Shown in pieces: positions 23,999 to 33,115 of a DNA stretch of 64,000 nucleotides. Both the position numbers and the translations under genes were made by a program. Source of the stretch: a virus (taxonomy: Duplodnaviria > Heunggongvirae > Uroviricota > Caudoviricetes > Ackermannviridae); IMG/VR virus record IMGVR_UViG_2974596396_000001, positions 24,254 through 88,253 of that record; one strand, given 5' to 3'. The notes under the pieces are model-generated. The model saw only the letters and a program-made list of their open reading frames with translations. It did no database searches and had not been told where the DNA came from. Numbering within the stretch: position 1 is the stretch's first letter; the number at the start of each line of letters is the position of its first letter.

Positions 23999-24556
23999 AT
24001 GGCAATCGAAATTATCGCTCAATCAAAATCAGGCAAAACAGTTCTGTTCGGAACCGAAGAAGGTCGTGCAATCACCACCCTGGGTACGGTTGACGGCAGC
24101 AATCCAGTAAAAGGCGGTCGCTTTCTGGTTGAATACGGTTCTCGTGTTGTAATGATAAGCAAAATCGATGGTCGTGAAATCACTGCTCCTCGCCAAGAGT
24201 TCTTTGATTCACGTTCCGCTGCCATGCAGTTCTTTTTCTTCCAGAAACGTCATGAACTGTTCGTTGAAGCGAAAGACGCAGGTCTGGACGACGCGACGGC
24301 TGAACTGATTGCCGAAGGTAAAATGACTCTTGAGGCTGCTCTCGGAGACATGGATTGCGAAGCCGAAGCACATTATATTGAATATTCCGCATATCAGAAC
24401 GAATGTGAAGATGATCCGGAAGATGACGGCTTCGACCCTGACCTCCACGGCGGTGAAGACGATAACACCCCTTCCCTAGAAGTTCTGATGGCTGGCGGTC
24501 AGGCCGCTTGGGAATGGCAGAACGAGAAGAACGCCTGGCTGGATTCCCGTATCTAA
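23999..24556 (+). CDS. acidic hypothetical protein (start revised to MAIEII)
   Basis: AAGGA SD; Asp/Glu-rich C-terminus. Confidence 0.7.
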   Translation: MAIEIIAQSKSGKTVLFGTEEGRAITTLGTVDGSNPVKGGRFLVEYGSRVVMISKIDGREITAPRQEFFDSRSAAMQFFFFQKRHELFVEAKDAGLDDATAELIAEGKMTLEAALGDMDCEAEAHYIEYSAYQNECEDDPEDDGFDPDLHGGEDDNTPSLEVLMAGGQAAWEWQNEKNAWLDSRI

Positions 24557-29110: not shown

Positions 29111-29140
29111 AAAAAGAAACCCGATCATCCTGATCGGGCT
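29111..29140 (-). terminator. terminator closing the RNA cluster
   Basis: CCCGATCA/TGATCGGG stem followed by TTTCTTTTT on the minus strand. Confidence 0.75.
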
Positions 29141-29197
29141 ATGTTAAACCATCGTGGGGATGGAAAGACTACTCACAGCAATTTCTGATAATGGGCG

Positions 29198-29353
29198 TTG
29201 GGAGAGTGCGTCGGGAATCGAACCCGAAATCGTCAGGACGCTGAAAGCTATTTGCATTTCACTTGCATATCCTGCGACTTTCTTAACTTCCTTAACCCCA
29301 GATTGTTATGAAGTCGGCATGCACACCTTCTTCATCTTCAGGAAGTCACACTC
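29198..29353 (-). ncRNA. expanded tRNA-like RNA (~155 nt)
   Basis: acceptor GAGTGTG/CGCACTC, T arm TCGGG-TTCGATT-CCCGA, ACTTCC/GGAAGT and CAGGA/TCCTG arms enclosing insertions. Confidence 0.65.
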
Positions 29354-29392
29354 ATAATTTGATTTGCGATGATGAACCCATTTCATCTGGGG

Positions 29393-29456
29393 TTGGGTGA
29401 GTGGGAGTTGAACCCACAACGCTTGGCTCGCTTTCCCTACCATTCAGGCCACCCAA
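29393..29456 (-). ncRNA. compact tRNA-like RNA lacking an anticodon arm (64 nt)
   Basis: TTGGGTGG/TCACCCAA, D arm CCT-GAATGGT-AGG, T arm GTGGG-TTCAACT-CCCAC. Confidence 0.6.
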
Positions 29457-29553
29457 TTCCAGGAGGTAGAGCACCTTTGCCGTCGGTGCCCATATGCCAG
29501 TCTTCCGCCCTGGCCTCCACTCGCGTCTGGGATTTCCGCGATGATCGCAAATT

Positions 29554-29637
29554 TGGTGTGAGTGGATGGATTTGAACCACCGCGCTGTTACGGGGAGATT
29601 TACAGTCTCCTGCATTCGACCGCTCTGCCACACTCAC
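29554..29637 (-). tRNA. tRNA-Tyr(GUA), copy 1
   Basis: GTGAGTG/CACTCAC-ACCA; GGAGA-CT-GTA-AA-TCTCC; long variable arm. Confidence 0.93.
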
Positions 29638-29643
29638 GTTGTT

Positions 29644-29729
29644 TGGTGCTCGTTAGAGGATTTGAACCCCAGCTCTCTGGTGATCAACCCAGAGAGTCGC
29701 GCCTCATCCATTTGTTAGCCTAAACGAGT
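29644..29729 (-). ncRNA. tRNA-like RNA with a single 8-bp arm in place of the anticodon/variable arms
   Basis: CTCGTT/AACGAG-C-ACCA, CTCTCTGG-GTTGATCA-CCAGAGAG, TTCAAAT T loop. Confidence 0.6.
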
Positions 29730-29734
29730 CTTGC

Positions 29735-29960
29735 AAAACCCGCACCGACCGTCTACAAACAGACTGCTTGACCGAGCGTAATGTGGACGGGCTTCACACC
29801 CGATTGAGCATTTGATCTGCCGTAGCCCAACTCCCCGCGCTTCACAGCGCCGATTGGTTAACTGGCGACCAGTGCCTTCTGGTTCGATCTCCTGGAACTT
29901 TACAGGCTTTGCGCCCGACCATTTCTGGGAGTTGGGGCATCGTTTCCGATGTGGAGTCAC
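29735..29960 (-). ncRNA. structured ncRNA of unknown class (~225 nt)
   Basis: 10-bp CCCAACTCCC/GGGAGTTGGG, CATCG-GAAA-CGATG, two TGTGAAG-type hairpin loops; no credible ORF. Confidence 0.5.
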
Positions 29961-29999
29961 CCCATTTTATACACAGCTGGCTGCAACGCTTACTGTGTT

Positions 30000-30081
30000 T
30001 GGTGTGAGTGGATGGATTCGAACCACCGCGTGGGATACCTGATTTACAGTCAGGCGCATTCGACCGCTCTGCCACACTCAC
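30000..30081 (-). tRNA. tRNA-Tyr(GUA), copy 2
   Basis: same acceptor/D/T arms as copy 1; CCTGA-CT-GTA-AA-TCAGG; CCA encoded. Confidence 0.93.
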
Positions 30082-30087
30082 ATTTAG

Positions 30088-30159
30088 TCTACCGCCGCGT
30101 GCTGGGCCACGCTTGAGGACATCGGCCATCCTTCCTCAGCTAATCCACGCGGCGGTAGA
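30088..30159. repeat. 14-bp perfect inverted repeat (long hairpin RNA)
   Basis: TCTACCGCCGCGTG (30088-30101) / CACGCGGCGGTAGA (30146-30159), inner TGAGGA/TCCTCA stem. Confidence 0.85.
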
Positions 30160-30227
30160 TTTGGATCAGAGTGTACGGTGTAGCATTCCGCAGGGGTGCA
30201 CCTACTGTAGCCCTTCCACTCTGAAAT

Positions 30228-30334
30228 TGGTGGGTGTTACTTCCGTCGGGTTCAGATTCCGTTCGGCTATTGGACTTCGCTTCAAGAGCTTGTCGTTCGC
30301 GTACTTCGTGCTTACTTGCTTTCGTTCACACCCA
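30228..30334 (-). ncRNA. acceptor-stem + CCA RNA with unstructured purine-rich interior
   Basis: GGGTGT/ACACCC-ACCA; interior has many GAA/GNRA words and no T arm. Confidence 0.5.
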
Positions 30335-30339
30335 TTGTT

Positions 30340-30470
30340 TGTCGTCGGGTGGGGGATTCAAACCCCAATCTTTAGTTTGCGTTTCTTCAAAGCTATCATA
30401 TGTTCACTTTGAATAATAAACTCCCCTGGACATCATAACAGGATCTCTATTTCATCCTGCAAGACCCGAC
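30340..30470 (-). ncRNA. expanded tRNA-like RNA (~130 nt)
   Basis: GTCGGGT/ACCCGAC, GGGG-TTTGAAT-CCCC, CAGGAT/ATCCTG, TTCAAAG/CTTTGAA. Confidence 0.6.
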
Positions 30471-30476
30471 ATAATA

Positions 30477-30552
30477 TGGCGACGATGACAGGACTTGAAC
30501 CTGCGACATATGGATTAACAGTCCACCGTTCTACCGACTGAACTACATCGTC
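30477..30552 (-). tRNA. tRNA-Asn(GUU)
   Basis: 76-nt cloverleaf; GTGGA-CT-GTT-AA-TCCAT; GCCA end. Confidence 0.95.
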
Positions 30553-30694
30553 AAATTTTGTGAAGACCAAACGCCGGATCGTAACGGTCGTATGTCTTCG
30601 GGTGGCTGTCGTTCTTGATGCTTACCATGCGCAGATCATAAGACTGATTCTGCAGGACATACACCAACCACAGCTGTTTTATAAATTCCATCAT
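30551..30694 (-). CDS. 47-aa peptide (not in ORF track)
   Basis: GAGGT SD; MMEFIKQLWLVYVLQNQSYDLRMVSIKNDSHPKTYDRYDPAFGLHKI*; stop overlaps tRNA-Asn 5' end. Confidence 0.5.
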   Translation of the reverse strand: MMEFIKQLWLVYVLQNQSYDLRMVSIKNDSHPKTYDRYDPAFGLHKI

Positions 30695-30695
30695 A

Positions 30696-30721
30696 AAGAT
30701 ACCTCACCAAATTTTATTGAA
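30696..30721 (-). promoter_or_regulatory. phage promoter TTCAAT-N14-TATCTT (plus CTAAATA at 30731-30737)
   Basis: 14-nt spacer; internal to the RNA cluster. Confidence 0.55.
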
Positions 30722-30737
30722 CAACTGGTTTATTTAG

Positions 30738-30813
30738 TGGTGACCCTGGCTGGACTTGAACCAGCGACCAATGAATTATGAGTTCACTGCTCTAACCACT
30801 GAGCTACGGGGCC
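30738..30813 (-). tRNA. tRNA with CAU anticodon, Ile2-like (lysidine type) or Met
   Basis: 76 nt; GGCCCCG...CT-CAT-AA...; body resembles enterobacterial tRNA-Ile2. Confidence 0.88.
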
Positions 30814-30818
30814 AAAAT

Positions 30819-30919
30819 TGGCGGGGTCTGAGGCTTTTCACCTCACCTGCTGGATTGGCCTCCAGCTGTTCTCTCTGGGGATTCACCTTCCGGACGGCTA
30901 TCCCTTAAACTATCACCCC
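30819..30919 (-). ncRNA. degenerate tRNA-like RNA (~100 nt)
   Basis: GGGGT/ACCCC-GCCA, TGAGG-TGAAAAG-CCTCA arm at the T position, GCTGGA/TCCAGC arm. Confidence 0.45.
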
Positions 30920-30924
30920 ATATT

Positions 30925-31012
30925 CAATAGCACCAGAGCATAATTACCGCTATACGACCACCCTCTCGGGCAGGTTGGTTCTGACCCAACGTCTCTCTGA
31001 TGCGTTTTATTG
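30925..31012 (-). ncRNA. circularly permuted tRNA-fold RNA (YrlA/Y RNA-like domain)
   Basis: order: outer stem, GTTGG-GTCAGAA-CCAAC (T), CTGCCC-GAGA-GGGTGG (closed acceptor), TC, GTAT-AGCGGTAATT-ATGC (D), outer stem GCATCAGA/TCTGGTGC. Confidence 0.65.
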
Positions 31013-31216
31013 TGTGCCCAATCAAGGACTGTCAACCTTTTATCCCGTTTGTGCATGATCAGTTCATGCATGCCTCTTTGTGCGCCTCACGGCAACGCGC
31101 TTCTGTAGGTCATTGACTTGCACCGTAGTCTCACCACAGGCGTTTATTTTTCCAGGGCTTTCCACTTACAAGTCTTAACCAGATCGGGATACGGGCTTGT
31201 AAGATCGGATTGGACA

Positions 31217-31294
31217 CAACTTTGATGGCTCTAGGACTAAAGATCCCGCGTCACCCATAGACTTGGTTTATAAAATCTAGAGCCATCAAAGTTG
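31217..31294. repeat. 18-bp perfect inverted repeat
   Basis: CAACTTTGATGGCTCTAG / CTAGAGCCATCAAAGTTG, 42-nt loop. Confidence 0.9.
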
Positions 31295-31674
31295 CAACCA
31301 ATGTCGCAACTCGCACTTCAGCGTCTTCGTCTCGCTTCAGCACTTGTCCTCTACGTTCGGACCAAACGAGGCTGGCCGACAGAAACATAACACCACTCAT
31401 CACTAGAGCGAGGATGTGGTTGATAGCCACGATGTTACGTCTCTGTCGTAGAGTGATCACACTTGTCAGGATGATCACTGTTTTGCGAACTTGAAAATAC
31501 TGCGCCTGTCTCGGGTTTCCCCTTAGTTCGGCCTCTCATTGTTCGTCTGGTCAGGGAGCTACCCTTGATGACCAGCTTATTTTGAGATCTTCGCCAGCGC
31601 CCACCAGTGTCTAGAATGTGTAGGCGTCGAGGTCTGCAAGGCATTGCCCTATTTCATACAACGCTCTCTCAAGT

Positions 31675-31810
31675 ACGCAAATCGAAGTTCTCTGGGCTTA
31701 ACAGGTTCGACCCAACATGTTGTATATCGCCTAACTTACTCATGGGACGGCCACTTCTGTGTACAGACCTTGAGGGTTAAAAGATATACCCAGAGAACTT
31801 CGATTTGCGT
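31675..31810. repeat. 22-bp perfect inverted repeat enclosing 92 nt
   Basis: ACGCAAATCGAAGTTCTCTGGG (31675-31696) / CCCAGAGAACTTCGATTTGCGT (31789-31810). Confidence 0.9.
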
Positions 31811-31855
31811 TGCCCTTCACTTGCCAGAGATCAGGGCAATTGGTAAGACTTCGCT

Positions 31856-31944
31856 CACATCTTAGAGGACACTGCACGGGACTCGAACCCGCCACGAACA
31901 TTTGGCGCCAAATGCTTCCACCTGTCAATGTCCTCTAAGATGTG
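31856..31944 (-). ncRNA. tRNA mimic with ~19-bp acceptor helix and palindromic anticodon arm
   Basis: CACATCTTAGAGGACATTG/CAGTGTCCTCTAAGATGTG; GCGGG-TTCGAGT-CCCGT; CATTTGGCGCCAAATG. Confidence 0.65.
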
Positions 31945-32068
31945 GAGCCGTTTTAGGGAGTCGAACCCAAATGCTTGGCCAGCGCTGACCTTACATCCCA
32001 TCTGACTTAGGCAACCCACCTCTGCTTACTCAGGAGCTTATCCCCTTTGGACAGTCAGATATAACGGC
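31943..32068 (-). ncRNA. expanded tRNA-like RNA (~126 nt) with CCA end
   Basis: GCCGTT/AACGGC-TCCA; GGG-TTCGACT-CCC; ATCTGAC/GTCAGAT; GGTCAGCGCTGGCC. Confidence 0.6.
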
Positions 32069-32124
32069 ATCGTCGACGGGAGATTATTAATCACACCCTC
32101 CCGTCTATTTTAGTGCGCCGAATT

Positions 32125-32338
32125 TGGTGATGAGGAATCGGAAGACCTCACTGGTGTATGGCTGTTAAGCTACTGCCAGGAACGTGTTATCGTTTGCATT
32201 TATCTTTGTGGTCAGTTTCTAAAAACCCGCAAAGTCGCATCCAACGAGAACGAAAACCTGTTTGAGTCCTAAACCTACCTGTCTTGGTCTCACATCGCTA
32301 TGAGTGGCCAGGACTCAAACAGCTTGCCGTTCAGTGAG
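32125..32338 (-). ncRNA. tmRNA-like RNA: tag reading frame ANDNTFLAVA* (32165-32197), CCA end, no canonical tRNA-like domain
   Basis: GATAAAT-GCA resume context; stop codon in an H5-like hairpin loop; own promoter; 13-bp 5' stem. Confidence 0.6.
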
Positions 32339-32341
32339 TTA

Positions 32342-32367
32342 ACTATACTTTGTAACCCGTTATTGAT
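32342..32367 (-). promoter_or_regulatory. phage promoter ATCAAT-N14-TATAGT driving the tmRNA-like RNA
   Basis: exact 14-nt spacer, as in the other copies. Confidence 0.6.
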
Positions 32368-32386
32368 AAAACCTTTTATTTTTTGT

Positions 32387-32454
32387 TGGCGAGGGTGTGG
32401 AATCGAACCACACTTCTGAGCGCTACCCCGTGTCACCAATGCACCACCTCACCA
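32387..32454 (-). ncRNA. compact tRNA-like RNA with stunted anticodon arm (68 nt)
   Basis: GGTGAGG/CCTCGCC, GTG-CATTGGTGA-CAC, GTGTGG-TTCGATT-CCACAC. Confidence 0.65.
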
Positions 32455-32616
32455 TCGATTTGCCGGAACTTACGCATCCGGCCTCGTCCTGTCGGTGTTC
32501 TTCTGAATCCGGGAAGATCAGCAGGAACTATGAATCAAGTTAATTCAACCAACAGGAATCCTCGTGTTGCCCTTTGACGCAACATTATGAACCCTCTATG
32601 AAGACTCATAATGTTG

Positions 32617-32708
32617 TCGGCGTGATGGAGATTAGCGCCCCCGACCCCCCCTTATATGTTGGTGTCGACTTGCCAACAGGGTGCTCTCTGATTCTGAGCT
32701 AATCACGC
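32617..32708 (-). ncRNA. tRNA-like RNA with a hairpin inserted in the anticodon loop and non-canonical T loop
   Basis: GCGTGAT/ATCACGC, TA-GCTC...GAGC, CCCT/AGGG enclosing GTTGG-CAAGTCGACA-CCAAC. Confidence 0.6.
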
Positions 32709-32911
32709 TACAACAGGGAGTTTCGTTCTCCGACGGTCAAGTGCGTCCACTGACACCAGCGAGGTGGCTATTACGCCTCTATTCACACAAGCCCCTGAGA
32801 CTAGGGGTTAACTGGTTTTGGGCTGCAAACCCGACTCCCACTGTGTTATTTCCCTCATGTTTAATACTTTACCGCAGCCCAGCTAATTTGAAAAGTCCTC
32901 TCCCCTTTGAG

Positions 32912-33058
32912 CTACACTGCCCACAGCAGTGCGGACGAACCTTCACTCAAAACCGGATGCGCCGAAGTGGGCAACTGTTTACCGGACTGATCGGGTAGAC
33001 CCAGGAGAGAGCAGGTAATCCCGATCAGGAGGATGAGGAGTAACATCATGTAAAACAT
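32912..33058 (-). CDS. 48-aa peptide with hydrophobic N-terminus (not in ORF track)
   Basis: GGAGG SD; MFYMMLLLILLIGITCSLLGLPDQSGKQLPTSAHPVLSEGSSALLWAV*. Confidence 0.55.
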   Translation of the reverse strand: MFYMMLLLILLIGITCSLLGLPDQSGKQLPTSAHPVLSEGSSALLWAV

Positions 33059-33115
33059 AGTGTTCCCTCCCTTCCATGCAACTAACTTTACTACAATTAT
33101 TTATTGAATAAAGCG

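Follow-up and report, generated by a model that had tools for sequence, protein, structure and literature searches.

The closest published relatives of the RNA genes described here are RNAs C and D of phage T4 (species 1 and 2), for which we know of no function. These two non-decoding RNAs of 139 and 119 nucleotides (nt) are encoded on the strand of the transfer RNA (tRNA) genes at the distal end of the T4 tRNA cluster, and in rnaC a stem encloses two long hairpin arms and a canonical T arm. A larger array of such units was analyzed in a 64,000-nt stretch of an Ackermannviridae genome (IMG/VR record IMGVR_UViG_2974596396_000001, positions 24,254 to 88,253; hereafter the window, whose numbering is used throughout). 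The array, here termed the RNA island, lies on the minus strand in a 3.8-kb "gene desert" of this Vi01/CBA120-type (Kuttervirus) phage and runs from about 32925 to a terminator at 29118. Its units are likewise encoded on the tRNA strand within a tRNA cluster, and its cloverleaf RNAs of 126–155 nt have the architecture of rnaC, without sequence homology to rnaC or rnaD beyond T-loop matches of 11–18 nt. Whereas T4 has two such units, the island has at least seven, together with large structured blocks and a gene resembling transfer-messenger RNA (tmRNA), and it turns the fifty-year-old puzzle of the T4 RNAs into a broad, comparable and testable family. The stretch is no junk but structured RNA that has been conserved: the sequences compared show its conservation, its base-pair covariation, its strand, the modularity of its cassettes and the coding signature of a tag. 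We hold with moderate confidence that it is a family-conserved, polycistronic RNA island of exchangeable cassettes whose payloads are directed at the host translation apparatus.

Other described systems resemble parts of the island. The phage tmRNA genes (ssrA) listed in a published census are confined to mycobacteriophages and Bacillus phage G, together with DS6A, where just the tRNA-like domain is present (PMC4131195); the module described below is the complementary half. Literature searches turned up no specific account of an Ackermannviridae transcriptome or of a phage tmRNA-like RNA. The processing stems of ribonuclease (RNase) III in rRNA operons and T7 early RNA flank their cargo, as do the island's stems of 22, 19, 19–26 and 20 bp (predicted sites), which are kept while the cargo differs; the island departs from these systems in that pairing is perfect over 22 bp in some stems and stem sequences reappear in different phage families. 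YrlA and Y RNAs are non-decoding, mimic the acceptor, D and T arms of tRNA, are handled by tRNA enzymes and bound by Ro60, and carry a GNCGAAN0-1G motif near the 5' end (PMC4201824). A permissive Rfam scan of the island gave only tRNA, tmRNA and chance-level matches, with no search aimed at the GNCGAA motif. Additionally, phage tRNAs act as counter-defenses: T5 tRNA-Lys counters PARIS (PMC11464382), and tRNA-Tyr counters retron-Eco7/PtuAB and Septu (PMC11555353, PMC13096335). Such counter-defense tRNAs decode and have altered loops, and they bear only on the island's four tRNAs, above all its two tRNA-Tyr genes; the tRNA look-alikes of the island, in contrast, have no anticodon arm at all.

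The tmRNA-like gene is a headless tmRNA, a module with a start-less tag frame, helix 5 and downstream pseudoknots (Table 1). A tmRNA-like RNA had been noted here in an earlier reading made from the sequence alone (the sequence-only reading), and a covariance model, covariation and the tag-codon pattern establish that it is real. The covariance model (R1) found one copy, at 180.6 bits; the message region of host tmRNA scored 9–10 bits (E 0.1–0.2), and the T4 locus gave no match. T4 rnaD was rejected as a relative of the tag module, since its similarity is limited to the T-loop and the model has no T4 match. In the alignment of the module (A2), 96.9% of the cells in four helices (19 pairs) were paired, compared with 34–48% when the partners were slid. 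Ten of the 19 pairs, and 64 cells, had changed on both sides, which none of 500 shuffles reached. This covariation supports helix 5 and three pseudoknot helices, and a fourth pseudoknot helix was seen by eye.

In all 134 distinct sequences in which the tag frame was analyzed, Ala (GCA or GCT) occupies codon 1 and Asn (AAC or AAT) occupies codon 2. Codon 10 is invariably Ala, encoded by three codons; codon 11 is always a stop (TAA in 114, TGA in 17 and TAG in 3 sequences), and no in-frame start codon is found 5' of the frame. The tag peptide has 13 variants. Fixed Ala and Asn residues encoded by synonymous codons, three different stops and the lack of a start are the signature of a translated tmRNA-style tag. 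The module shares with host tmRNA a resume context with A-U-A at −6 to −4, and it has a resume codon, a tag that lacks a start codon, follows the pattern AN[DE]xxx[LM]A[AV]A and ends in a degron-like, LAA-type tail, a stop in the loop of helix 5 and pseudoknots downstream. It differs from tmRNA in having two pseudoknots rather than three, an antisense arm to host tmRNA, and no acceptor stem, T arm or G3:U70 pair. No tRNA-like domain was found by ARAGORN, which called no tmRNA here or in 21 phage contexts, by a search for covariation partners of the 5' end or by reading of the flanks, and Rfam scores against RF00023, whose tRNA-like domain is missing here, were 10–22 bits, below threshold. Codons 3–5 of the ANDENYALAA tag read GAC GAA AAC almost without exception in about 120 proteobacterial tmRNAs and show no synonymous variation, a fixity that hints at an RNA-level constraint on this part of tmRNA itself.

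The 5' arm of the module carries an invariant GTTTTCG(TC) block with perfect complementarity, 8–11 nt long, to tmRNA nt 97–107 in 11 of the 12 phage clades. The target, GACGAAAAC, is invariant in about 120 host species. A second block in the arm, GCGAY-T, apparently matches AGUCGC at the resume site, as read by eye with no tool count. In Ackermannviridae, the arm lies within the 3' strand of a hairpin of about 20 bp, in which 2 of 20 pairs are compensatory, 6 have one-sided changes and 2 cells are non-standard; the other strand of this hairpin resembles the tmRNA target. The hairpin could mask the arm, or it could be an RNase III site that frees it.

The headless tmRNA is widespread. Matches at 72–86% identity were found in Webervirus, a lambdoid phage, Felixounavirus, phiEa21-4, P1/P7-like phages, a Vibrio phage and podophages of 70–75 kb (FSL SP-076, vB_EcoP_PE007). 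Among four other phages whose neighborhoods were compared, same-strand tRNA genes adjoin the module in three, and in lambdoid HK633 its position is between pR' and the lysis genes; strong promoters also precede the module in unrelated phages, in the position of the sigma-70-like promoter of this phage (Table 1). A pattern scan of IMG/VR placed the module in at least 119 contigs. Of 5,426 complete E. coli genomes, 584 carry relatives, with 150 locations on chromosomes and 472 on plasmids, and among the matches listed none is annotated apart from an occasional "hypothetical protein". A tmRNA-derived module common to hundreds of unrelated enterobacterial phages could reveal a new viral manipulation of ribosome rescue and protein tagging. 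In lambdoid and sipho-type loci (L016:1-2547, L020, L023, L026, L093), the headless tmRNA stands within a series of cassettes that share one closing stem of about 13–20 bp (roughly CAACAGGTAAGRGCATTG ... CAGTGCTCTTTCCGTTG) and differ in their cargo, which in some cases includes a T arm; in HK633, the whole series is located between pR' and the lysis genes.

The tRNA look-alikes were recognized by their T-loops. The motif GGTTCRANTCC occurs in 11 minus-strand copies between 29214 and 32409; the whole window has 20 copies against 9.0 ± 3.05 expected, and none of 100 shuffles reached 20. Subtracting the four T-loops of the tRNA genes leaves seven extra T-arm units, each with a canonical T-loop and a closing acceptor-like stem and without an anticodon arm. 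The sequence-only reading was thus right about the existence of RNAs built of acceptor stem and T arm; its count of about nine is replaced by seven T-arm units and one acceptor-only RNA ending in CCA. Three units, including the acceptor-only RNA, end in N-CCA like the four tRNA genes, and two more end in N-CCCA. None of the seven belongs to RF00005 (a cloverleaf with a 7-nt anticodon loop and at least 29 bits or an ARAGORN call); the best scores were 17–18 bits, to tRNA-Sec, with E values of 6–9.

The look-alikes recur in 27–230 phage records and are conserved across genera. The 67-nt mini tRNA-like RNA has no anticodon arm or encoded CCA in its sequence and fold. Of the 157 phage records that contain it, two label it tRNA-Ala; it is missing from the loci of four relatives and replaced in four others. 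The 126-nt cloverleaf occurs in 194 records (186 at ≥95% identity) with diverging flanks. The 19-bp stem of the neighboring cassette stays in relatives while its cargo is deleted or swapped. A Dickeya phage has a 90% identical copy of the 127-nt cloverleaf whose T stem carries a compensatory change, and the class-II-like look-alike, for which ARAGORN calls nothing, has Klebsiella and Dickeya phage copies at 85–90% identity with compensatory changes. The second mini tRNA-like RNA was found in 27 records, among them Agtrevirus at 97–99% identity and, at 87.5%, the unrelated 76-kb Kosakonia phage Kc283 (69125–69204); the Kc283 copy indicates that single cassettes cross phage families. The 155-nt unit was found in 230 phage records. 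A permuted tRNA had also been proposed at 30925–31011, and the minimum-energy fold is as described; only one near-identical relative was available among the compared loci, and the fold is listed as a candidate.

Covariation in the large blocks and the 155-nt unit was measured in Ackermannviridae alignments of 9–12 sequences (12 for A3 and A4) from about three to four clades. In Block B (alignment A3), 99.4% of 121 pairs are standard, compared with 34–45% with partners slid, and 30 of the 121 are compensatory (0–8 slid). Block A (A4) has 105 pairs, of which 97.9% are standard (39–46% slid) and 17 are compensatory (0–2 slid). In the 155-nt unit (A5), 11 of 36 pairs are compensatory, located in the acceptor stem, the T arm and both long arms of a four-way fold, and the loop sequences are invariant. 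These counts are inflated to some degree, because the clades are few and the tested structures were derived from the same alignments. The paired columns contain 383 G-U and 10 A-C cells, which indicates that pairing was selected on the minus strand and hence as RNA rather than as DNA cruciforms. The long stems of the sequence-only reading were confirmed as inverted repeats of 22/22 bp, 14/14 bp, 19 nt at 95%, 26 nt at 88% and 23 nt at 87%.

Comparison of relatives also revealed how the island changes. Whole units are cleanly present, absent or replaced; contigs of related phages skip exactly 30339–30476 and 30920–31012, inserts are placed in hairpin loops, and homing endonucleases are found inside the island of some relatives. 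No conserved open reading frame (ORF) was found on either strand in the RNA blocks apart from the two small ORFs described below, so a coding explanation for these blocks is disfavored.

Four canonical tRNAs had been counted in the array, and ARAGORN and Rfam agree on the number and on the identities (Met, Asn and two Tyr), with RF00005 scores of 57–75 bits; the complete 160.4-kb genome has no others. The two tRNA-Tyr copies are about 85% identical, and most of their differences fall in the anticodon stem and the variable arm. The variable-arm region of tRNA-Tyr is the site cut by Septu/PtuAB (PMC13096335, PMC11555353), and the two variants may be nuclease-resistant forms. In Marshall and in a Klebsiella relative (L002:2638-3051, L003:2798-3211), HNH homing-endonuclease genes that are absent here adjoin tRNA-Met, which fits cassette turnover in the island.

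We infer transcription, processing, stability and every function of the island as follows. The island would most likely be transcribed leftward as one or a few long precursors, starting upstream and at an internal promoter (32369–32342) and all ending at the terminator (29140–29118). Host RNase P and 3' trimming would be directed to the units by their tRNA-shaped ends, which comprise an acceptor stem, a T arm and in many cases an encoded CCA, and the 14–22-bp stems would act as RNase III-type cut or protection sites, so that each cassette would be released as a small stable RNA. The release of units from one precursor had been proposed before, and the tRNA-like ends and the single terminator fit it. 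The four decoding tRNAs would supplement or replace host tRNAs. The headless tmRNA would use its 5' arm to anneal to host tmRNA at the resume region and the opening codons, and would present its own start-less tag template; the seven non-decoding look-alikes would probably be stable, competitive ligands for proteins that recognize the acceptor stem or elbow. What the tmRNA-like module suggests is interference with ribosome rescue and not with tRNA-cleaving defenses. A more specific version, which we put forward only tentatively and regard as rather doubtful, is that the island equips the phage to take control of ribosome rescue and tRNA handling in the host. The arm would dock on the invariant GACGAAAAC/AGUCGC of host tmRNA, and stalled ribosomes entered by the host tRNA-like domain would resume on the phage template, adding a tag ending in LAVA in place of one ending in ALAA; the mini tRNAs and cloverleaves would act as stable sponges for elbow- and acceptor-binding factors, similar to the inhibition of tmRNA by RNAs that consist of the tRNA-like domain only.

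Besides the inflation of the covariation counts mentioned above, several observations weigh against the favored explanation. The module has no tRNA-like domain, and no SmpB gene that would hint at a partner was found in the phage genome. Energies of duplexes between the 55-nt arm and whole tmRNA are no better than those of shuffled arms (z −2.0 to +1.3); the arm is short, only its short perfect complementary blocks are informative, and in Ackermannviridae it is sequestered in the 20-bp hairpin. The 126-nt cloverleaf and the second mini tRNA-like RNA are almost invariant, which reflects conservation or recent spread and provides no covariation. Individual phages dispense with cassettes. No gene for Ro60 (TROVE) was found in the complete 160.4-kb genome, and the units therefore do not belong to the Y RNA/YrlA class. 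One sequencing run labeled as RNA yielded an 18-kb whole-phage contig in which the island has the depth of the flanking genes, and it is uninformative on transcripts, ends and strand.

Alternatively, the tRNA-shaped units and long stems could be punctuation or stability handles (sites for RNase P, RNase Z and RNase III, or protected ends) for the real payloads, i.e. the tRNAs, the headless tmRNA and the large blocks, with no function in trans. Handles would be consistent with the way units adjoin other modules, as where the 126-nt cloverleaf follows the tmRNA-like module in a place taken elsewhere by tRNAs or long-stem cassettes, with the retention of stems while cargo is swapped, and with the absence of individual units from some relatives. 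Nevertheless, we find this account somewhat unlikely: the interiors of the units are conserved as well as their ends, with the 126 nt of that cloverleaf at ≥95% identity in 186 records, the loops of the 155-nt unit do not vary, whole cassettes move between phage families, and arms of 60–100 nt are unnecessary for a simple handle.

The sequence-only reading had instead taken the look-alikes for decoys that absorb tRNA-targeting defense nucleases or toxins and thereby shield host and phage tRNAs, a role that is unlikely in our judgment. It draws on the known counter-defense tRNAs (PMC11464382, PMC11555353, PMC13096335), on the two tRNA-Tyr variants with different variable arms, and on the turnover of cassettes beside homing endonucleases in relatives, which fits an arms race. 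However, the look-alikes have neither the anticodon stem-loop nor the tRNA-Tyr variable loop cut by known nucleases, and lacking anticodon stem-loops they would be poor decoys for PrrC, RloC, PARIS AriB and the tRNA-Tyr variable-loop cutters. No defense-specific signature was found, and the sequences are very stable over hundreds of phages, unlike fast-evolving counter-defense genes. A decoy role is thus unlikely toward anticodon nucleases and possible at most toward readers of the acceptor/T-arm elbow.

Decaying tRNA pseudogenes and homing-endonuclease scars, which the sequence-only reading had associated with a lack of covariation, are strongly disfavored and in our estimate very improbable. 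The region is mosaic, the class-II-like look-alike resembles a degraded class II tRNA, and 14 relatives carry extra tRNAs here (Ser, Trp, Ile and Gln), with HNH endonucleases in relatives as well; on the other hand, no tRNA called by ARAGORN in these relatives aligns with any of the seven units, which recur there as look-alikes, compensatory changes preserve pairing, and conservation exceeds that of the flanks. Least probable of all is that the inverted repeats act as DNA (an origin, a packaging or recombination site, or attC-like or miniature inverted-repeat transposable element-like cassettes), as the perfect repeats of 14–22 bp, the gain and loss of cassettes at stems and the many deposited genomes opened inside the region might suggest, since the excess of G-U over A-C cells marks selection on one strand, all T-loops have the same orientation, stems stay while cargo changes, minus-strand folds are more stable in the large blocks, and the sole "repeat_region" annotated in relatives, rejected as terminal repeats, is the 21-nt arm of the 22-bp stem.

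The stretch is matched by 391 phage records, with conservation highest in Kuttervirus (Vi01/CBA120-like Ackermannviridae). The island is flanked on one side by a 189-residue ORF adjoining a baseplate-wedge gene and on the other by a small ORF and a tail-needle-knob gene, and the same synteny (baseplate-wedge and tail-needle-knob) is found in Kuttervirus, Taipeivirus, Agtrevirus-like phages and Limestonevirus. Phages of the Vi01/CBA120 type are widely sequenced and used in biocontrol. A conserved set of folded RNAs, some fifteen in number, takes up about 2.5% of their genome, and almost none of these RNAs is annotated as such in databases, where the region is blank or covered by spurious "hypothetical proteins"; annotation of phage genomes would improve with their recognition. 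The features are summarized in Table 1.

Table 1. Features of the RNA island and its borders (window coordinates).
Feature	Position	Strand	Description or basis
Small ORF, 48 amino acids, one hydrophobic helix, strong ribosome-binding site	32912..33058	-	Protein gene, outside RNA array
Block A, structured RNA of ~470 nt	32455..32925	-	Long-range closing helix, invariant 18-bp hairpin; alignment A4
Mini tRNA-like RNA, 67 nt	32387..32453	-	7-bp acceptor stem, D-like hairpin, T arm
Sigma-70-like promoter 5' of tmRNA-like module	32342..32369	-	TTATCA, 16 nt, TATAGT; promoter scan
Hairpin of ~20 bp, 3' strand holding the antisense arm of the tmRNA-like module	32248..32332	-	Inverted repeat I3
Headless tmRNA	32075..32258	-	Covariance model R1, covariation A2, codon pattern
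Headless tmRNA, antisense arm	32258-32233	-	Complementary to host tmRNA
Headless tmRNA, tag ORF	32197-32165	-	ANDNTFLAVA then stop; resume context ATAAAT then GCA
Headless tmRNA, helix 5	32179-32151	-	Alignment A2
Headless tmRNA, pseudoknot a	32150-32118	-	Alignment A2
Headless tmRNA, pseudoknot b	32117-32075	-	Alignment A2
Expanded cloverleaf RNA, 126 nt	31943..32068	-	6-bp acceptor stem, two long arms, T arm, 3' end U-CCA
Cassette with 19-bp closing stem, T arm and palindromic hairpin	31856..31944	-	Sequence and fold
Block B, hairpin chain	31200..31815	-	Includes 22-bp stem (31810-31675) and 19-26-bp stem (31302-31209); alignment A3
Candidate circularly permuted tRNA-like fold	30925..31011	-	Minimum-energy fold
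tRNA-Met (CAT)	30738..30813	-	ARAGORN and Rfam
Possible small ORF, 47 amino acids, between tRNA-Met and tRNA-Asn	30551..30694	-	Matches phrog_6110
tRNA-Asn (GTT)	30477..30552	-	ARAGORN and Rfam
Expanded cloverleaf RNA, 127 nt	30344..30470	-	7-bp closing stem, two hairpins, T arm
RNA closed only by acceptor-like stem	30228..30333	-	Ends A-CCA, purine-rich interior; sequence and fold
Hairpin cassette, perfect 14-bp stem	30088..30159	-	Inverted repeat; fold z -4.7
tRNA-Tyr (GTA), copy 1	30000..30081	-	ARAGORN and Rfam
Degenerate class-II-like tRNA look-alike	29644..29730	-	Long variable-arm hairpin, T arm, 3' end A-CCA
tRNA-Tyr (GTA), copy 2	29554..29637	-	ARAGORN and Rfam
Second mini tRNA-like RNA, without anticodon arm	29388..29456	-	Sequence and fold
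Expanded cloverleaf RNA, 155 nt, last unit before terminator	29199..29353	-	Alignment A5
Intrinsic terminator closing the island	29118..29140	-	10-bp stem then T run; annotated as terminator in relatives

The closing terminator of the sequence-only reading was found again, is also annotated in relatives, and is the only strong minus-strand terminator in the island. Several internal promoters had been listed with it, and a single one is supported; this promoter is kept in all aligned relatives, even where the sequence upstream of it is deleted.

In the SeKF_19 and Bullseye_ER20 deposits, 11–16 short "hypothetical protein" coding sequences are laid over these RNA genes, and two look-alikes are called tRNA-Ala, tRNA-Leu or tRNA-OTHER; these calls are probably annotation artifacts. 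Weak Rfam matches to plant and animal microRNA precursors, Plastid-ycf2 and small nucleolar RNAs were rejected, as they reflect long hairpins or the antisense strand of tRNA.

The 5' border of the array had been set at about 33060, and its first 150 nt (33058–32912) proved to be a protein gene conserved at the amino acid level, so that the RNA array begins at about 32925. The 48-residue product shares 48% amino acid identity over residues 13–41 with its counterparts in Taipeivirus loci and matches phrog_8415, and its hydrophobic N-terminal segment and C-terminal AH.VLS.GS motif are kept across Ackermannviridae genera. A further small protein may be encoded by the 47-residue ORF between tRNA-Met and tRNA-Asn, the C-terminal half of which has a 58% identical counterpart in one relative.

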